A stretch of 30,057 nt of DNA from Candidatus Gastranaerophilales bacterium (lineage in GTDB: Bacteria > Cyanobacteriota > Vampirovibrionia > Gastranaerophilales > Gastranaerophilaceae). The stretch covers positions 1 through 30,057 of the forward strand of contig CALUTA010000001.1 in assembly GCA_944323585.1 (NCBI GenBank). Direction: 5' to 3'. The translations under genes were made by a program, and so were the position numbers. The notes beneath the pieces are model-generated. The model made no database searches and was not told the DNA's origin. It saw only the letters and a list, made by a program, of their open reading frames with translations. Below are positions 1 through 13,394 of this stretch, one piece after another (within the stretch, counting starts at the first letter, position 1; the number at the start of each line of letters is the position of its first letter).

Positions 1-423
1 AGGAACTTCGTCATACAATACTCCGTGCGCAATTAATGAATCCTCTTTTGTTGCGTCATCTCCTGCAGTTCCGATAACCTCCTGCATTGTGTCATATGGT
101 GCTCCGGCAGCTGAAAGAAGTTTATTTCCCGGTCTTAAGCAGCCAAAAAGACAGCAGGCAAGTGTGTGGGTGCCTGACGCAAAATGTACTCTGACAAGTG
201 CCTTTTCCGCTTTGAAAACATCTGCAAAAACTCTATCAAGAACTTCACGTCCCAGATCATCGTGGCCGTAGCCCGAAACCGTATAAAAGTGTTCTGGTGC
301 TACTTTGTTATTAATAAAGGCTTCAAGGACTTTTTTCTGGTTTAAATCTCTTATATCTTCAATAATTTCAAATTGTTCTCTTAATTCTTTTTCGGCTTTT
401 TTTATTATTTCATGGCTTGTCAT
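1..423 (-). CDS. YnbB / aluminium-resistance / methionine gamma-lyase-like PLP-dependent protein, N-terminal part (runs off the window edge; not in the ORF track)
   Basis: Manual translation from the ATG at 423: MTSHEIIKKAEKELREQFEIIEDIRDLNQKKVLEAF...TVSGYGHDDLGREVLDRVFADVFKAEKALVRVHFASGTHTLACCLFGCLRPG...GAPYDTMQEVIG. The GYG.DD.GR, SGTH and PYDT motifs are typical of this family. AAGGA RBS upstream; TG-G-TATAAT at 457-449. Confidence 0.88.
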   Translation of the reverse strand, partial: MTSHEIIKKAEKELREQFEIIEDIRDLNQKKVLEAFINNKVAPEHFYTVSGYGHDDLGREVLDRVFADVFKAEKALVRVHFASGTHTLACCLFGCLRPGNKLLSAAGAPYDTMQEVIGTAGDDATKEDSLIAHGVLYDEVP

Positions 424-7444: not shown

Positions 7445-7483
7445 CTTAAAAAATTAAATATAAAGCGCTTTAAATTGTTACAG

Positions 7484-7514
7484 GCAGGAAAGTATAAACT
7501 TTCCTGCTCTTTGT
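7484..7514 (+). terminator. Intrinsic terminator after dfx-ftn
   Basis: GCAGGAAAG-tataaa-CTTTCCTGC 9-bp stem followed by TCTTTGT. Confidence 0.7.
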
Positions 7515-7585
7515 ATTAATCTTTACAATTTTGAGATCCAGTTATAAAAAGTATATAATACTTTCAGTATAATTCTGGAAATAAA

Positions 7586-9361
7586 ATGAGCAGGGATTTT
7601 AGATATAAAGATTACGTAAATACATTAAGATTTAAACTCGCCGGTGCAGTAGTAGGTTTGGACGAGTATTGTGAAAAACTTATCAGAAAATATATATATA
7701 ACAGTGTATTGTCTGCAGCAAAGGCTGTTTATGAAAATCCGGAGGTTTCGCCCGAAGCATGCGAAATAATCACAAGGACAATTGGGGAATGGACAGTTTG
7801 TAAATTAGCTGATATTATTAACGGTCATGTGCCTGATTGTTTCTTTGATACGATTATTAATAAAATAAACTCAGGAATTTACGATTACTTACTTGACGAA
7901 AACAAGCTTGAACCTCTGACTGAGGAAAGTTTAGAAAATCCAGACAGGCTTAATAAACTGGAAGAAATTGTTCAAAATATTTACGGAGAGACACTTGCGC
8001 AGATATATTCTGACAGAGGGATAGATAAAGAGACTTATATCCTTGCGCTTTCACAGTCATTTTATTCAGATAAGCAAAATCAAGATGAAGAGCCAGATAA
8101 AGATACGCAAGAGAAAAATTTAAAAACAGATAAATTTATATATTCACCGGTAAAGTTATCAGAATTTGCAAAAATTAAAAAATATCTTAAAAACAACCCT
8201 TGCAGAGTTTTATTGCTCTTCGTGTTTATTGTTGCGATTTTATTTTTACCTTTAATCTGTCTCGGCTTAATACCCATGTCAAAAGAAGATTTATGGGCTG
8301 CATTAATGGCAGTGTTTTTGTGTATGTGGGTTTATATATTTGACATAATCATAGAAGCCGACCTATTTGACAGAATTGAGCAGAAACTAAAATTATCCGA
8401 ATGCAACGGGCAGGAGCAGAATTCTGTGGAATTAAACAGCCCGAACGAAATGTATGAGCGCCTTGGGGTAGATATTTTATCTATCAGATTAGGCACCGGT
8501 TTGTTGAATTATGCTGCGCCTGAGTTCGATAACATTTTGCTGCCTTTGATTTCCGAAGTAAGGAAAGAATTTACCGAAGAGCTCGGTTATATTATACCGA
8601 AGGTCAGATGTCTGGATGATAAGGACTTAAGGCCTGATGAATTCCGTATTTATGTCCGCGGGGTTATGAGAGATAATTTTTTTGCAGGCAAAAATACTAA
8701 AAATGATGAAATTTCAACACTTCTTCGGCAACACTTAAAAGAATGCTGTATTAAAAACGTAAAGGATATATTGACAAGAACTGATGTTATAAAACTTATG
8801 GAAATTGTAAGTTCGCAGGATCCGACCCTTGTAAATGACCTGATTCCATCAAGAATATCCGCAGTTGATTTACGCAGGATACTTGTATCTTTGATAAGAG
8901 AAGAAATTTCTGTTAAGGATACTATTCTTATATTTGAAAGACTTTGTGATTATGCAAGATTTAATACTCAGCCTCACGTTCTTGTTGAAAGTCTTAGAGC
9001 GGCAATGTCCGCACAAATATGTGATAAGTATTCCGTAAAAACGGACAACGGTATGATTTTATATGCCCTAACACTAAACAGTGGACTTGAAAAAATACTT
9101 GCAGAAGCGGTACAATATACAGAATTCGGCACAATAATCAAACTTCAGCCGGATCAGATTGAACAGTTAATTATGGATGTCAACAAAACTATATCTGGCT
9201 TGAATACGCATAAAAAAGATGCAGTACTTCTTGTTACCCCCAAAATTCGTAAACCATTGTTCGACTTGCTTTCTGAATATATTGACAATATTAAAATTAT
9301 GTCGTACTCCGAACTTTTGCCTGCAGTCGAAATGAAAGTAGAAATACTGGCTGAAATTTAA
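7586..9361 (+). CDS. FHIPEP/FlhA-like protein: novel N-terminal domain, 2 TM helices, FlhA cytoplasmic domain lacking D2
   Basis: The C-terminal ~300 aa follow FlhA_C: VDILSIRLGTGLL, VRKEFTEELGYIIPKVRCLDD..L...EFRIYVRGV, LTRTDV..LME...DPTLVNDLIP, LRRILVSLIREEISVKDTILIFERL, LVESLRAAM, MSYSEL. Two hydrophobic helices at about aa 208-257. Confidence 0.85.
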   Translation: MSRDFRYKDYVNTLRFKLAGAVVGLDEYCEKLIRKYIYNSVLSAAKAVYENPEVSPEACEIITRTIGEWTVCKLADIINGHVPDCFFDTIINKINSGIYDYLLDENKLEPLTEESLENPDRLNKLEEIVQNIYGETLAQIYSDRGIDKETYILALSQSFYSDKQNQDEEPDKDTQEKNLKTDKFIYSPVKLSEFAKIKKYLKNNPCRVLLLFVFIVAILFLPLICLGLIPMSKEDLWAALMAVFLCMWVYIFDIIIEADLFDRIEQKLKLSECNGQEQNSVELNSPNEMYERLGVDILSIRLGTGLLNYAAPEFDNILLPLISEVRKEFTEELGYIIPKVRCLDDKDLRPDEFRIYVRGVMRDNFFAGKNTKNDEISTLLRQHLKECCIKNVKDILTRTDVIKLMEIVSSQDPTLVNDLIPSRISAVDLRRILVSLIREEISVKDTILIFERLCDYARFNTQPHVLVESLRAAMSAQICDKYSVKTDNGMILYALTLNSGLEKILAEAVQYTEFGTIIKLQPDQIEQLIMDVNKTISGLNTHKKDAVLLVTPKIRKPLFDLLSEYIDNIKIMSYSELLPAVEMKVEILAEI

Positions 9362-9421
9362 TTATTGCGAATTTGTAACTAATTTGTCCGAAACCTTAAA
9401 ATATTTTATTATATAAATGTT

Positions 9422-11008
9422 ATGGAAAATGCCAGAATAATAGTAGTTGATGATGAAAAAATGGTTACCTCGGCATTCCGGACGCTTTTTGCGGTCGAAG
9501 GAATTAAGGGAGGCGCTTTCTTTAATTCGCCTAAAGAAGCTCTTGATTATATGCAAAAAGAGGCACCTGATTTAATTATATCAGATTTTTTGATGCCTGA
9601 GATGAACGGGCTTGAATTTTTGCGGGAAGCAAAAAAACTTTACCCTGAAACCAGTATGATTCTTTTAACCGGCTATGCTGATAAAGAAAATGCAATCAGA
9701 GCAATAAACGAAATCGGGCTTTACAAATACATCGAAAAACCCTGGGACAATGACGATTTGTTGATGAATATCAGAAACGGGGTTGAAAGAAGCCACTTAT
9801 TGAGTGATTTAAGAGAAAAAATAGCCGAACTTGAAGATGCAAAAAAACAGCTTGAAATTTACTCAAATGACCTTGAAAGACTTGTTGCGGAGCGCACTCA
9901 TGAACTTTCGCAGGCGAACCAGAAACTGAGCGGAATAATCAATCACTGCGCTGATGGAATAATAATTCTAGATAAAGACGGTAGAATTGAACAGATTAAT
10001 CCGGCCTGTGAAAATATGACAGGGCTGGACACAACTGCTATTTTGAATCGTACCTTTACTCAGATTGTCAAAGGCTGCAAACAGGATATGATTTCTGACA
10101 GCAGCGGACTGTTCGGACTTAGTGCTGACAACTCGGAAATTCTTCTAAAAGATTGTCATATTGCAAATTCTCTCAGCGGGGCTCACACTCCTGTTGAAAT
10201 TAATCTGGCTGCTATCAAAGATGAAGACCAGACTTTGCCTGAAAAATACGTCGGAGTAATAAGAGATGTAACTTCTCAGAAAGAAACAGAAAGACTCAGA
10301 GATGATTTTATTGCAACACTTACGCATGATTTGAGAACACCGCTTCTTGCGGCAATTCAAACTCTTAAATTCTTTCTGGACGGCTCTCTTGGCGAACTGG
10401 ATGACAAACAGAAGGTTTTGCTTTCAACAATGCTTCAGAGTAACGAGGATTTGTTAGGACTTGTAAATGCATTACTTGAGGTTTATCGCTTTGACAGCGG
10501 ACGACTGGAACTCTGCAAGACTGTTTTTGCACCGAAAACGCTTGTTGAACAGTGTATTGAAGAACTTATGCCTCTTGCTAAAAACAAAAATATTGACCTT
10601 GAGTTTGAATGTAATTTTGATGACAAACTTGAAATTTACGCAGATAAAGGCGAGTTGAAGCGTGTAATCACAAATTTGTGCGGAAATGCGGTCAATTATA
10701 CTAATAAAGAGGGTCATATCAAGGTTATTTTAAAAGCACAGTCCGGTGATTTAATTTTCTCGGTAGAAGACAACGGAAACGGAATTCCCAAAAATGACAT
10801 TCCGCAATTGTTCACGAGATTTTCTCAGGGTACAAGCCGCAAACGATCTACCGGCACAGGACTCGGGTTGTATCTCTCCCGCCAGATTATAGAGGCTCAT
10901 GGAGGCAAAATCTGGGTGGAAAGCAAAATTAACAAGGGAAGTGAATTTACTTTCCTTCTGACTGACGTTGTAAAATCAAATGAAGAAAGACAGGTTGTAA
11001 ATGGTTAG
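9422..11008 (+). CDS. Cytoplasmic hybrid histidine kinase: REC - coiled coil - PAS - HisKA - HATPase
   Basis: IIVVDDE...IISDFLMPEMNG...KPW receiver. THDLRTPL H-box, NLCGNAVNYT N-box, EDNGNGI G1, GTGLGL G2. No TM segment. Confidence 0.93.
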   Translation: MENARIIVVDDEKMVTSAFRTLFAVEGIKGGAFFNSPKEALDYMQKEAPDLIISDFLMPEMNGLEFLREAKKLYPETSMILLTGYADKENAIRAINEIGLYKYIEKPWDNDDLLMNIRNGVERSHLLSDLREKIAELEDAKKQLEIYSNDLERLVAERTHELSQANQKLSGIINHCADGIIILDKDGRIEQINPACENMTGLDTTAILNRTFTQIVKGCKQDMISDSSGLFGLSADNSEILLKDCHIANSLSGAHTPVEINLAAIKDEDQTLPEKYVGVIRDVTSQKETERLRDDFIATLTHDLRTPLLAAIQTLKFFLDGSLGELDDKQKVLLSTMLQSNEDLLGLVNALLEVYRFDSGRLELCKTVFAPKTLVEQCIEELMPLAKNKNIDLEFECNFDDKLEIYADKGELKRVITNLCGNAVNYTNKEGHIKVILKAQSGDLIFSVEDNGNGIPKNDIPQLFTRFSQGTSRKRSTGTGLGLYLSRQIIEAHGGKIWVESKINKGSEFTFLLTDVVKSNEERQVVNG

Positions 11009-11666
11009 GGTTTTGATTGTGGAAGATCACGATATGGCAAGAATGGGGCTTTCTGTAATCTTAAGCAAGAATCCCAACATTGAAATTGCTGATACGGCCT
11101 CGGACGGACAGGAAGGTGTCGATAAAGCACTGAGTCTTGTTCCCGATGTAGTTATTATGGACATAGGGCTTCCGACTATTGACGGGATTGAAGCTACAAA
11201 AAAAATTAAACTTGCGAATTCCCGAATAAAAGTTTTGATGTACACTTCCCGTGAAGATGAAGATGATATATTTGATTCATTTCAGGCTGGAGCCGACGGA
11301 TATATTACGAAAGGTGCAACATCAGAGCAGACGGTTTCTGCGGTTCTTGCTGTCAGCGAAGGCGCCGGTTGGCTTGATCCTGCAATTGCTAAAGTTGTGC
11401 TGACTAATGTCAGAAGAAATACTCAAACACAGCAAAGACGCGGTGAAATTAATTATAAACTCGGTAAAAATTTATACGGGCTGACTGAAAGAGAAATGGA
11501 AGTTCTTGCTCTGATTGTGGACGGTCTGACAAACCCGCAGATTGCTGATAAACTTGTAATCACTATTTCAACGACCAAAACGCACGTTCACAGCATTCTT
11601 CAAAAATTGTATGTTGGCTCACGTGCCAAAGCAATTGCAACTGCAATGAAAGAAGGACTTGTTTAA
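11001..11666 (+). CDS. NarL/LuxR-family response regulator
   Basis: LIVEDH...VIMDIGLP..DG receiver. LTEREMEVL..IVDGLTNPQIA..L.ITISTTKTHV..IL.KL HTH. Overlaps the kinase gene by 8 nt. Confidence 0.95.
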   Translation: MVRVLIVEDHDMARMGLSVILSKNPNIEIADTASDGQEGVDKALSLVPDVVIMDIGLPTIDGIEATKKIKLANSRIKVLMYTSREDEDDIFDSFQAGADGYITKGATSEQTVSAVLAVSEGAGWLDPAIAKVVLTNVRRNTQTQQRRGEINYKLGKNLYGLTEREMEVLALIVDGLTNPQIADKLVITISTTKTHVHSILQKLYVGSRAKAIATAMKEGLV

Positions 11667-11668
11667 AA

Positions 11669-13093
11669 ATGCTGAAAAAATCGTTTTTGATTTTTAGTTT
11701 ATTAATGTGTTCTGTATCTGCAAATGCTTTTTCACTTTCTGACATTGATTTGTCAATGCCGTGGAATTCATCTGACGGAAACTCAACTGAAGAACAGGCC
11801 AAATATCTTAATAAAGTGAAAAAAGAGGATTTGAAAGAAGAATACGGAAGAAAAAAACTCAATATTCATCAAAATCCTTTTATGACAGTCGAAGAGTATG
11901 AAATGCTTTCAGCCCCGAAAGACAAGACTCTTGAAGAAATTCCGATTCCTAAGCCTGAAAAGCCTTCTGATATGAAGTATGTTCCGGTTTATGATTATGA
12001 ACTTACACGCTACAACAACCCGCCTGGCAGCCCTGAAATTTCTCTAACAGGCGACTTTAAAAAACGCAGACAGCAGAATGCACAGGGAATTGTTTCGCCG
12101 GACTACTCGATTCTCGTGTATCCTTCTGTTTATTATTACTACAAAGAAAACGTTGTTGCCTGCGACCTTTTTGTAATTCCGCTGGAGCAAAAAGGAAATG
12201 CGCTTGCAAGGATAAAAAAAGCAAATGTAATGCACAGACTGCCTGATCCTATTCTATCAACCGGAAAAGTTACGGAAGAATACGGGATCTACAGAACTCT
12301 TACACCAGTAGACTTTAATATTGACGGAACAAAACTTCTTGTAAAGGAAAAAATAGGAAGCAATGATGATGGCATCTGGCAGACAAATGCCATTGTCTAT
12401 GATTTTGTATCTCACAGTTCTTATAAGCTTAATGAGATACGTGATGCTATTGTCTACTACTGGCAGGAATATAAATATCTAAATCTGAATGATGTGAGAT
12501 GGGATATTTATCCTCTTGGTTTTGAAGTCCAAAATCCAGACAGAATTGTTGTGTCTGCTTTTGCCTACACAGGCTCCGTACCTGTCTTTTTAGGAAACTG
12601 GAGCATTGATTCTAAGGGCGAACGAGCACTACTCCTTTCCCTTGACCCGAAAAATAAAGTTCAAATCAGCATGAACGGTGTTAAAATGATACGTTCCGGT
12701 GTTGTCCCCCCGTATATTCTTGAAAAGGAAGAAAAACATCAGAAATATGTTGAAAAACAAGAAGCAAAGGCTAAGGAAAAGGAAGAAAAAGCACAAATTA
12801 AAGCCATAGAAGATGAGTATAAGCAAAAAGTCAAAGAATTAGACAAAGAGTTAAAGATAGAACTTCAAAACGACAAAATAAAAGAAAAAATAGAAGGTTC
12901 AACTTCAACTAATGATGCAGTAGAAAAAATTGATGAAGCTCTTGAAAAAGCAAAGCAGGAACGGCTTGAAAAAGAAGCAAAGGCTAAGGCTCGCCAGCTT
13001 GCAAAGGAGCAGAAAAAGCTTAAGAAAGAACAACAAAAATTGAACAATCAGCAGCCTGACCAGTCAAATACGGGGGCAACGCCTTCGCAATAG
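11669..13093 (+). CDS. Secreted hypothetical protein with a beta-rich middle and a charged coiled-coil tail
   Basis: Signal peptide ending ANA. K/E/Q-rich C-terminal ~120 aa. Starts 2 nt after the regulator stop. Confidence 0.75.
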   Translation: MLKKSFLIFSLLMCSVSANAFSLSDIDLSMPWNSSDGNSTEEQAKYLNKVKKEDLKEEYGRKKLNIHQNPFMTVEEYEMLSAPKDKTLEEIPIPKPEKPSDMKYVPVYDYELTRYNNPPGSPEISLTGDFKKRRQQNAQGIVSPDYSILVYPSVYYYYKENVVACDLFVIPLEQKGNALARIKKANVMHRLPDPILSTGKVTEEYGIYRTLTPVDFNIDGTKLLVKEKIGSNDDGIWQTNAIVYDFVSHSSYKLNEIRDAIVYYWQEYKYLNLNDVRWDIYPLGFEVQNPDRIVVSAFAYTGSVPVFLGNWSIDSKGERALLLSLDPKNKVQISMNGVKMIRSGVVPPYILEKEEKHQKYVEKQEAKAKEKEEKAQIKAIEDEYKQKVKELDKELKIELQNDKIKEKIEGSTSTNDAVEKIDEALEKAKQERLEKEAKAKARQLAKEQKKLKKEQQKLNNQQPDQSNTGATPSQ

Positions 13094-13366: not shown

Positions 13367-13394
13367 AAAAAAGACGACTTGAAATCGTCGTCTT
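13367..13394 (-). terminator. Intrinsic terminator of the 13452-13820 gene
   Basis: AAGACGAC-N8-GTCGTCTT stem with a T tract on the minus strand. Confidence 0.7.

Follow-up and report, generated by a model that had tools for sequence, protein, structure and literature searches.

A D2-less FlhA derivative with a lineage-specific N-domain in Gastranaerophilales is probably a functional accessory protein

FlhA and SctV are normally single-copy, highly constrained nonameric gates, and the D2 cleft of FlhA determines in which order late substrates are exported. In Salmonella, residues E351, W354, and D356 of the FlhA linker (FlhA_L) bind D1 and D3 of the neighboring subunit, which stabilizes the ring, and a dimple between D1 and D2 (D456, F459, T490) binds the FlgN, FliS, and FliT complexes (PMC8166844). 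According to a report on Chlamydia (PMC2830194), this bacterium has the stand-alone flagellar paralogs FlhA, FliI, and FliF beside its injectisome; as in the case described here, an FlhA-family protein occurs there without a motility flagellum, and it is thought to contact another type III secretion system (T3SS). For Gastranaerophilales, a 2026 preprint says no more than that part of the flagellar gene set persists in about three quarters of the genomes, with a role in secretion "postulated." In the literature that we searched, we found a description of neither the FlhA derivative family nor the second apparatus presented below.

The window, a stretch of 30,057 nucleotides from Candidatus Gastranaerophilales bacterium (contig CALUTA010000001.1), contains a gene whose product, P0001, consists of an all-helical N-domain, two transmembrane (TM) helices, the FlhA linker, and then FlhA_C minus its domain D2 (Table 1). 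The AlphaFold model of P0001 has a mean pLDDT of 72. The candidate promoter agrees with the consensus at 11 of 12 positions and ranks top in the scanned region, on pattern match alone, and the low-confidence linker that follows the N-domain differs in both length and sequence between aligned P0001 orthologs.

Table 1. Features of the P0001 gene and its borders (positions in the window; aa, residues of P0001)
Feature	Position	Strand	Remarks
Terminator-like hairpin, end of upstream ferritin gene	7483..7508	+	11-bp stem, then T-run; left edge of unit
TTAAT direct repeat, left copy	7516..7520	+	Boundary of 1,842-bp indel; AT-rich motif, chance possible
Sigma-70-like promoter candidate	7531..7559	+	TTGAGA, 17 nt, TATAAT; ATG 27 nt downstream
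P0001, D2-less FlhA paralog, whole ORF	7586..9361	+	591 aa, single ATG-initiated ORF
N-domain, aa 1-160	7586..8065	+	Bundle of long helices, lineage-specific module; pLDDT about 80-90
Acidic/polar linker, low confidence, aa 161-204	8066..8197	+	pLDDT <50 over aa 160-196
TM helix 1, aa ~205-226	8198..8263	+	Hydropathy peak 3.36; helix in model
TM helix 2 and cytoplasmic extension, aa ~233-262	8282..8371	+	hhalign: collinear with last TM helix of FlhA
FlhA linker (FlhA_L), aa 278-297	8417..8476	+	Nearly invariant PN-x-MYERLGVD motif
FlhA_C D1, first part, aa 298-361	8477..8668	+	Alignments to PDB chain and genome's FlhA; model
Short loop replacing D2, aa ~362-374	8669..8707	+	Alignments split here: Pfam, PDB chains, genome's FlhA
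FlhA_C D1 second part, D3, D4, aa 375-591	8708..9358	+	Pfam profile 453-656; VIA Z up to 27.6
TTAAT direct repeat, right copy	9358..9362	+	Overlaps TAA stop codon; conserved kinase upstream region follows

An earlier note, made from the letters of this DNA, had recognized FlhA_C in the C-terminal half of the protein, and both sequence and fold bear this out. The Pfam family FHIPEP (PF00771) matches P0001 with an E value of 3.4e-52 and 178 bits (cut-off, 29.1), and the model superposes on FlhA_C/SctV_C structures, among them FlhA_C, MxiA, YscV, and SsaV, with VIA Z scores of 23 to 27.6 and Foldseek E values of 1e-18 to 1e-12. P0001 is most closely related to the FlhA encoded in the same genome (40% identity over 383 columns), the identity amounting to 70% in the linker, 65% in D3, and 39 to 41% in D1 and D4 (39% in D4). 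Residues P286, N287, M289, and R292 to D296 of FlhA_L are invariant in the family alignment. According to hhalign, aa 233-591 are collinear with the last TM helix, the linker, and the C-domain of FlhA (probability 100, E 7e-93), the alignment beginning at aa 233, which faces residue 296 of the genome's FlhA. TM helix 1 has no FlhA counterpart in this alignment; a MAFFT alignment had suggested its equivalence to TM7 of FlhA, which we rejected because hhalign leaves the helix out and because the TM residues of P0001 are only 11 to 21% identical to those of FlhA, which is chance level. The question raised in the earlier note, whether the N terminus aligns with the normal FlhA membrane region, is thereby answered in part: TM helix 2 does, while aa 1-200 are unrelated and FHIPEP profile positions 1-264, which cover TM1-6 and the FHIPEP loop, match nothing in P0001. 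On these alignments, P0001 is a shortened FlhA that has received a new head, not a wholly new scaffold, and the "new 2-TM scaffold" proposed at first has to be given up.

The loss of D2 is evident from each alignment. In the genome search, the FHIPEP match is split (aa ~222-361 to profile positions 265-396 and aa ~376-581 to positions 453-656), so that about 56 profile positions are absent from P0001. With Bacillus subtilis FlhA_C (3mix), aa 267-359 align with chain residues 18-110 and aa 378-584 with residues 172-375, which leaves 18 residues in P0001 versus 61 in 3mix at the D2 site; the corresponding numbers are about 18 versus about 62 in the comparison with the genome's own full-length FlhA. 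Overall, about 13 to 18 residues replace about 56 to 62 in every alignment, and the gap is present in 19 of 19 aligned family members, which confirms the D2 gap that had been placed at about 8660-8720. At the loop, the family alignment shows no variation in R358 and R362 and almost none in F365. The NCBIfam equivalog models score P0001 far below their cut-offs (FlhA, TIGR01398, 182 bits versus 772; SctV, 101 versus 692), and judged by sequence P0001 is a homolog of the C-terminal part of FlhA and no equivalog. P0001 thus shares FlhA_L, D1, D3, and D4 with FlhA/SctV in both sequence and fold but has neither TM1-6 nor the FHIPEP cytoplasmic loop and carries instead an unrelated 160-aa helical N-domain at a non-T3SS locus; with D2, it has also lost the residues that this domain contributes to the dimple for FlgN, FliS, and FliT (PMC8166844). 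Since TM1-6 with the FHIPEP loop and D2 are missing and the equivalog score is below cut-off, P0001 cannot be a normal export gate, which agrees with the earlier note.

The long helices and the two TM helices announced for the N-terminal part are indeed present, but the N-domain is not of an orphan type. A profile (A3) built from P0001's own orthologs finds matches in 147 of the 151 genomes of the order and in 264 cluster representatives at E values up to 0.001. This helical profile of about 170 aa, of which P0001 is a founding member, contains the conserved motifs F-x-Y-K-x-F and I-x-E-W-T-F-H-K, both present in P0001, and is matched by no Pfam family. Three fold searches (pdb Foldseek, pdb_via_wide, and afdb_swissprot) with models of P0001 and of P0124, a protein introduced below whose model is better than that of P0001 (pLDDT 87.7), gave no convincing match for the domain; the top one, cytomegalovirus IE1 at Z 9.5-10.7, is under the stated noise level for helical bundles, so that the fold search of aa 1-200 proposed in the earlier note yields no assignment. 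Language-model comparison of the N-domain brought up FHIPEP fragment clusters at 0.77 to 0.78, which is below the noise level, and these neighbors were dropped as evidence.

P0124, a protein of 350 aa, comes from the flagellar-type cluster of the same genome (contig C14), where its gene lies between fliF and fliH; the N-domain profile matches it with an E value of 8e-29. Its family, which occupies the fliG slot of the order fliE-fliF-X-fliH-flhA (alignment A5), has at its N terminus the same N-domain as P0001; unlike P0001, P0124 is soluble, with a Pro/Gln/Ala-rich linker, a 140-aa helical C-domain, and no FlhA part. By eye this C-domain looks FliG_N-like, and its sole named language-model neighbors are FliG families (0.75 to 0.81), a lead only. 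The Pfam families FliG_N and FliG_C do not match the fliG-slot protein, a PDB profile search with it gave nothing below E 0.2, no FliG family matched either P0001 or P0124, and FliG was absent among the fold matches of both models (three fold searches in the case of P0124). FHIPEP is present in 31 of 36 long N-domain proteins, and this recurrent fusion of the N-domain to FlhA_C argues that both parts act in one complex.

P0001 stands for the D2-less branch, confined to one genus, of a larger and so far undescribed family in Gastranaerophilales, whose members consist of the N-domain, usually TM helices, and then FlhA_C. As most relatives with this architecture retain D2, its loss is a late, local event that does not define the family. 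The D2-less clade is monophyletic (SH-aLRT 100), and another D2-less N-domain fusion, P0250, groups with the D2-containing P0234 (SH-aLRT 94), so that from this tree D2 seems to have been lost at least twice among N-domain fusions. The D2-containing fusions (alignment A4; for example, a 694-aa protein of genome G124) follow P0001's plan of N-domain, linker, and C-domain, usually with two to four TM helices and in several cases with none, but they align with FlhA_C in one continuous stretch and form long branches separate from P0001, which is just 36 to 44% identical to the G124 fusion in D1, D3, and D4. Nor is P0001 an orphan in its own genome, as the earlier note had it: two further FlhA_C proteins and a flagellar-type cluster are encoded there, the cluster on a different contig. 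The soluble FlhA_C paralog P0003 (~490 aa, contig C13), a type found in 59 of the 61 genomes of the family, is encoded away from T3SS genes, like P0001; it differs in having no TM helices, no N-domain, a weakly DUF4177-like start, and a retained D2, and it is much more diverged, at 19 to 37% identity to FlhA by domain. The chlamydial FlhA is full-length, unlike the truncated, D2-less fusion P0001.

The genomes of the family also tell of the apparatus to which these proteins may belong. Of 61 examined, 32 encode flagellin, and precisely these 32 have two fliP genes and also a second FlhA, which scores better; the other export set is kept in all sampled genomes, flagellin or not. Non-flagellated relatives have no FliG_C but do have a SpoA-domain protein adjoining fliP and two rod proteins. 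A flagellum-derived export apparatus is kept in non-flagellated relatives, and flagellated ones have it beside a true flagellum, as a second and separate set. The window's genome encodes much of this apparatus; a search of it for fliP, flagellin, fliS, and FliG_C gave nothing, and as it is 88% complete, statements on its apparatus lean on complete relatives, in which gene content was checked.

Is the P0001 gene a decaying or neutral duplicate without function? Its fast amino-acid divergence, its absence from some congeners, and the missing export parts would agree with such a fate, which we nevertheless consider highly improbable. Full-length orthologs reach down to 41% identity, many metagenomic variants are full-length, none of nine loci examined has a stop codon, and motifs are invariant in the N-domain and in FlhA_C alike; across this deep divergence, dN/dS is 0.12 to 0.20 overall (0.06 to 0.18 in the N-domain and 0.10 to 0.27 in FlhA_C), which means purifying selection in all domains. 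The full-length orthologs and the dN/dS values also rule out the pseudogene or chimera that the earlier note had kept in view. Two gut metatranscriptome libraries contain contigs of 170 to 293 nt from within the ORF, which indicate presence only, as carried-over DNA is possible. This is a genuine gene, and selection acts on it. It is also dispensable: intact in seven of nine congeneric species genomes, that of the window included, it was not found in the other two searched (G063 and G121), and among the matches listed the type is found in no other genus of the order sample, where there are D2-containing fusions or none. P0001 evolves four to six times faster than its neighbors (dN 0.48-0.50 versus 0.03-0.14 for kinase and regulator), but since synonymous sites are saturated between subclades for all genes, fast evolution is not separable here from older allelic lineages. 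Fast change would fit a conflict-type role, or some other unrelated one, as well; a PADLOC search for anti-phage defence gave no match for P0001, P0124, P0003, or P0271.

The neighborhood holds no flagellar or T3SS gene, as had been noted: desulfoferrodoxin and ferritin are encoded upstream, and the genes downstream specify a REC-PAS-histidine kinase and a LuxR-type regulator. P0001 might be a ring or platform of its own, anchored in the membrane and cooperating with this two-component system and with a secreted 474-aa protein, a signalling scaffold that has departed from the T3SS. The gene lies on the same strand as the kinase gene at a distance of 60 nt, and after the hairpin that precedes it, the next terminator-like hairpin comes only at 13371-13394; orthologous loci at 43 to 46% identity have the genes for ferritin, the FlhA-like protein, kinase, regulator, and secreted protein in the same order; and a sensor TM domain is missing from the kinase. 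However, within the genus synteny spans the whole 17 kb, so that conserved order gives nothing specific, and two congeneric genomes as well as three other genera have the conserved trio of kinase, regulator, and secreted protein but no FlhA-like gene. When the ferritin-kinase gaps of G121 and G063 are compared with the window's two gaps, the FlhA-like gene with its own promoter appears as a clean 1,842-bp indel: in G121, which has no FlhA-like gene, the same terminator-like hairpin directly precedes the kinase gene, and the region 3' of the right TTAAT copy, immediately after the FlhA-like stop codon, is the kinase's own conserved upstream sequence, also found in genomes without the P0001 gene. 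P0001 is only incidentally linked to the two-component genes downstream of it; functional coupling to the trio was discarded as the main reading, since the trio also occurs in genomes lacking the gene, and we regard a signalling scaffold as quite unlikely. In another reading, also unlikely in our view, specificity was gained: the loop in place of D2 and the N-domain would form a new docking site, making P0001 a receptor for another class of substrate or chaperone. The conserved arginines and phenylalanine of the loop, the apparently repeated loss of D2, an evolution that is fast yet constrained, and the lack of a detected FliS in this genome are in keeping with such a receptor. Against it, P0001 has no linked gene for a candidate cargo or chaperone, the flanking genes are unrelated to secretion, and neither sequence nor structure gave any sign of a binding pocket.

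P0001 is probably a functional, FlhA-derived accessory protein, neither an export gate nor a relic. To the more specific reading that we prefer, namely, that it is an accessory or modulatory subunit docking on the FlhA ring of the flagellum-derived apparatus, we give about even chances. When the C-domains of P0001 and of the genome's FlhA were co-folded as a heterodimer, the score was 0.32, and the best of three controls reached 0.01; of 80 solved complexes 58 attained that mark, as did 2 of 110 mismatched pairs, but only 7 of the 80 did so at 0.60 or under, and so did both of the passing mismatches. The result is weak and could simply reflect memory of solved FlhA/SctV rings. The predicted interface places aa 284-295 of P0001 on FlhA residues 386-402, 511-523, 552-563, and 584-588, and it is the known linker-to-D1/D3 ring contact (PMC8166844). 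The high identity in linker and D3, the co-folding score, and the type of contact are together compatible with the modulator co-assembling with canonical FlhA that the earlier note had suggested.

From these data we infer a membrane topology, a docking on the ring, and a modulatory role as follows. The TM hairpin would anchor P0001 in the inner membrane, with the N-domain and FlhA_C both cytoplasmic, and the conserved linker and D3 would let its FlhA_C dock onto, or join, the cytoplasmic ring of the resident FlhA; insertion into the TM ring of FlhA is pure conjecture, the TM helices being at chance identity. The N-domain may bring P0001 to the basal-body environment of the fliG-slot protein. 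Without TM1-6, the FHIPEP loop, and D2, P0001 would be unable to energize export or to bind chaperones of the FlgN/FliS/FliT type, and it would thereby change the composition of the ring, tuning or restricting substrate docking or gating. A bolder extension, which we hold to be improbable, is that the family, as sampled in the 61 genomes, has beside a true flagellum or in its stead a previously unrecognized flagellum-derived secretion machine with a multi-paralog FlhA platform, composed of the full-length FlhA, a universal soluble FlhA_C, and variable N-domain/FlhA_C fusions; the D2-less P0001 type would then be a swappable ring subunit that reprograms the substrates accepted, and the N-domain a shared module by which these subunits and the fliG-slot protein dock to the basal body.

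P0001 constitutes a natural experiment, a selected FlhA derivative that has the ring-forming linker and D3 but is deprived of the ion-conducting membrane domain and of the chaperone cleft, in a lineage where FlhA_C paralogs have multiplied and acquired a new domain by fusion. If proteins of this kind do join the gate ring, they would provide the first natural case both of a heteromeric FlhA ring and of T3SS substrate choice being controlled through paralogs. The context may outweigh the gene itself: non-flagellated gut Gastranaerophilales keep a flagellum-derived apparatus that has neither flagellin nor the torque domain of FliG.

The 591-residue protein P0001 is a new architectural variant inside the FlhA/SctV family. 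The Pfam FHIPEP profile matches it with an E value of 3.4e-52, and in the genome search this match is split, residues ~222-361 corresponding to profile positions 265-396 and residues ~376-581 to positions 453-656. Alignment with the cytoplasmic domain of B. subtilis FlhA (3mix) pairs residues 267-359 with 18-110 and residues 378-584 with 172-375, leaving 18 residues opposite 61 of the solved structure where D2 should lie; the gap recurs against the genome's own FlhA and in 19/19 aligned members of the P0001 family. AlphaFold predicts a protein of three parts (mean pLDDT, 72), and the C-terminal one superposes on FlhA, MxiA, YscV, SsaV, and EscV (VIA Z, 23 to 27.6; Foldseek E, 1e-18 to 1e-12). 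The alignments and the model confirm that the earlier note described the C-terminal half correctly as the FlhA cytoplasmic domain (FlhA_C) minus D2, deletion site included. Residues D456 and F459 of Salmonella FlhA fall within D2. The chaperone-binding dimple of that protein (D456, F459, T490) sits at the D1-D2 interface (PMC8166844), and with D2 lost from P0001, the dimple in its known form cannot exist there.

In agreement with the earlier inference from the sequence, P0001 cannot be a normal export gate: FHIPEP profile positions 1-264, which comprise TM1-6 and the FHIPEP loop, have no counterpart anywhere in the protein, and its scores against the NCBIfam equivalogs for FlhA (182 bits; cut-off, 772) and SctV (101 bits; cut-off, 692) lie far under the cut-offs. 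An FlhA/SctV gate possesses TM1-6, the FHIPEP loop, and D2, whereas P0001 is devoid of all three. The accompanying idea of a new two-TM scaffold holds only in part: the first helix falls outside the profile-profile alignment to FlhA, and identity over the TM residues is only 11-21%. From residue 233 to its end, the P0001 family is collinear with residues 296-695 of full-length FlhA (probability 100, E 7e-93), so the second helix stands where FlhA has its last TM segment. Descent of the hairpin from FlhA TM7-8 is plausible. Overall, the earlier interpretation is partly supported.

The real surprise of P0001 is its N-domain. No Pfam family matched it, and fold searches gave no convincing relative; however, it is not the orphan of unknown type that it had seemed, since a profile of residues 1-200 of the P0001 family finds the module in 147/151 genomes of the order, in 0/80 genomes sampled from the phylum's other families, and in 264 cluster representatives from 1.8 billion proteins. 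The domain occurs in soluble proteins (310-370 aa), with two TM helices (~225-250 aa), with four TM helices (~310 aa), and in fusions where usually two to four TM helices precede FlhA_C (500-780 aa). FHIPEP is matched by 31 of the 36 long (500-780 aa) N-domain proteins, and most fusions keep D2, as judged from a single continuous alignment to FlhA_C. P0001 belongs to a D2-less branch of this undescribed fusion family, the D2-less proteins forming one clade (22 rows; SH-aLRT, 100; stem length, 0.54). Three metagenomic cluster representatives, P0250, P0201, and P0186, are further fusions without D2; P0250 lies outside the P0001 clade and groups with a D2-containing protein (SH-aLRT, 94), which suggests a second loss, so that D2 may have been lost more than once. 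Two other sampled genomes encode N-domain proteins without any FlhA part, one of which (in G113) has the P0001 orthologue on one side and the kinase gene on the other as immediate neighbors, while the other (in G071) adjoins a pyrophosphatase-like gene.

Features of the P0001 locus and of related loci (window positions unless a locus or residues are named)
Feature	Position	Strand	Basis or remark
Terminator-like hairpin, strong, after ferritin gene and before P0001 gene	7483-7508	+	
TTAAT 5-bp direct repeats flanking indel	7516-7520, 9358-9362		Right copy overlaps stop codon; chance possible in AT-rich DNA
Promoter-like site of P0001 gene	7531-7559	+	Pattern match
P0001 ORF, single, 591 aa	7586..9361	+	ORF call
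P0001 part 1, all-helical region	aa 7-156		AlphaFold model
P0001 part 2, a linker modelled with low confidence, then two long hydrophobic helices (helix positions given)	aa 205-225, 233-271		AlphaFold model
P0001 part 3, FlhA_C-like alpha/beta region	C-terminal		AlphaFold model
REC-PAS-HisKA-HATPase kinase (sensor-less), REC-LuxR regulator, 474-aa secreted protein	9422-13093	+	
fliE, fliF, P0124, fliH, flhA, in this order	L010:6024-12133, contig C14	-	
P0124, 350 aa, soluble N-domain type	L010:8978-10027, contig C14	-	fliG position
P0003, soluble 491-aa FlhA_C paralogue	L002:1117-2592, contig C13	+	D2 retained
G113 protein, 238 aa, N-domain and two TM helices	L012:4148-4864	-	
G071 protein, 314 aa, N-domain and four TM helices	L013:2694-3638	-	

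It had been noted that no flagellar or type III secretion gene lies nearby, which is true of the neighborhood of P0001 but not of the genome, which encodes a full-length FlhA (701 aa, contig C14), P0003, FlhB, FliE, FliF, and FliH; flagellin, FliP, FliS, and FliG_C were not found in this assembly, which is only 88% complete. Names of the source organisms of close FlhA relatives, Atlas taxa, and the chicken gut origin of the RNA runs that contain the sequence all point to a gut member of the Gastranaerophilales. Published work says no more than that part of the flagellar gene set persists in most Gastranaerophilales (PMC4040986; preprint 10.64898/2026.04.24.720558), and no publication on FlhA paralogues of the group turned up in our literature search. 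In a survey of the family with one genome per genus, flagellin occurs in 32/61 genomes, and these same 32, no more and no fewer, carry a pair of fliP genes plus an extra, better-scoring FlhA (E about 1e-260). Among the matches listed, 60/61 genomes have the other fliP (ORF of 213-230 aa) and 59/61 have the remaining FlhA (E about 1e-215), the gaps being incomplete assemblies: the window's genome (fliP), a 63% one (FlhA), and a 75%-complete one (no copy among the matches listed). In non-flagellated relatives (99% complete genomes) FliG_C is absent; a SpoA-domain protein of ~400 aa adjoins fliP and two rod-type proteins are kept. The family thus keeps a second, flagellum-derived apparatus other than the motility flagellum; it looks like a secretion apparatus maintained independently of motility.

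The N-domain proteins track this second apparatus. P0124, which occupies the fliG slot, combines the shared N-domain with a Pro/Gln/Ala-rich linker and a helical C-domain of 140 aa (model pLDDT, 87.7); it has no Pfam match, FliG was not among the matches in three fold searches, and its C-domain has FliG families as language-model neighbors, though only at 0.75-0.81. P0003 has a weak DUF4177-like N terminus and is flanked by a nucleoside-phosphorylase-like gene; ORFs of its type (~485-545 aa) occur, among the matches listed, in 59/61 genomes of the family, and one idea is that they would form a second ring stacked on FlhA. Nine FHIPEP matches, an unusual FlhA-related expansion, were seen in the 2.0-Mb genome G140, from another genus of the same family.

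The gene for P0001 is under constraint. Among 5.8 billion proteins, full-length homologues (566-611 aa) range from 99% down to 41% identity, no stop codon interrupts the gene in nine loci, and dN/dS (Nei-Gojobori; orthologues from species-representative genomes) is 0.12-0.20 overall, with 0.06-0.18 for the N-domain, 0.10-0.27 for FlhA_C, and 0.28-0.40 for the linker and TM part. By these values, the gene is not a recent, unconserved pseudogenised chimera, the case that the earlier note had considered, and a functionless duplicate is very improbable. Short contigs of the gene appear in two chicken gut metatranscriptome libraries, where DNA carry-over is possible. The P0001 type is restricted to the window's own genus among the matches listed from species-representative genomes and occurs in 7/9 genus genomes searched, including the window's own; it was not found in the congeners G063 and G121. 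Between genus subclades, identity is 43-46% for the P0001 type, 82-90% for the kinase, 84-99% for the regulator, and 81-86% for the ferritin; dN reaches 0.48-0.50 in P0001, as against 0.08-0.14 (kinase) and 0.03-0.11 (regulator), with synonymous sites saturated, so that age and rate of the P0001 divergence are inseparable.

No terminator-like site was found between the P0001 stop codon and the start codon of the adjacent kinase gene, for whose product P0001 might serve as a signalling scaffold. However, the kinase-regulator-secreted protein trio (the last carries a signal peptide and a tail rich in Lys and Glu, and it matches no Pfam family), which is conserved across at least four genera, occurs without the FlhA-like gene in the two congeners and in three other genera. 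Furthermore, intergenic alignment with G121 and G063 shows a clean indel of 1,842 bp that takes in the P0001 gene with its promoter and has the ferritin terminator on one side and the conserved upstream region of the kinase gene on the other. The linkage to the two-component genes is secondary, and we hold a scaffold of this kind to be improbable. As G063 and G121 are at least as close to the window as genomes that bear the gene, the comparison favors a loss in these two over an insertion.

The identity of P0001 to the genome's FlhA is uneven (linker, 70%; D3, 65%; D1, 41%; D4, 39%), the closest parts being exactly the linker and D3. In Salmonella FlhA, the nonameric ring is stabilized by three residues of the linker, E351, W354, and D356, which bind to the adjacent subunit at D1 and D3 (PMC8166844). 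Co-folding of the C-domains of P0001 and FlhA scored 0.32 (best control, 0.01), where the mark was reached by 58/80 solved complexes and 2/110 mismatched pairs; of those that reached it, only 7 of the 80 solved complexes, but both mismatches, did so with a score of 0.60 or under. The predicted interface places P0001 linker residues 284-295 on FlhA residues 386-402, 511-523, 552-563, and 584-588; as the model may recall solved rings, it is compatible with docking rather than proof of it and lends weak support to a ring contact. That P0001 is instead a new cargo receptor seems unlikely, if a little less so than the scaffold. Based on the likeness of the linker and D3, the co-fold, the recurrent fusion of N-domain and FlhA_C, and the N-domain in the fliG-slot protein, we infer, at about even odds, that P0001 is a modulator: it would be recruited to the second apparatus at its basal body, dock on or enter its FlhA ring, and act there as a subunit without ion conduction or chaperone binding.
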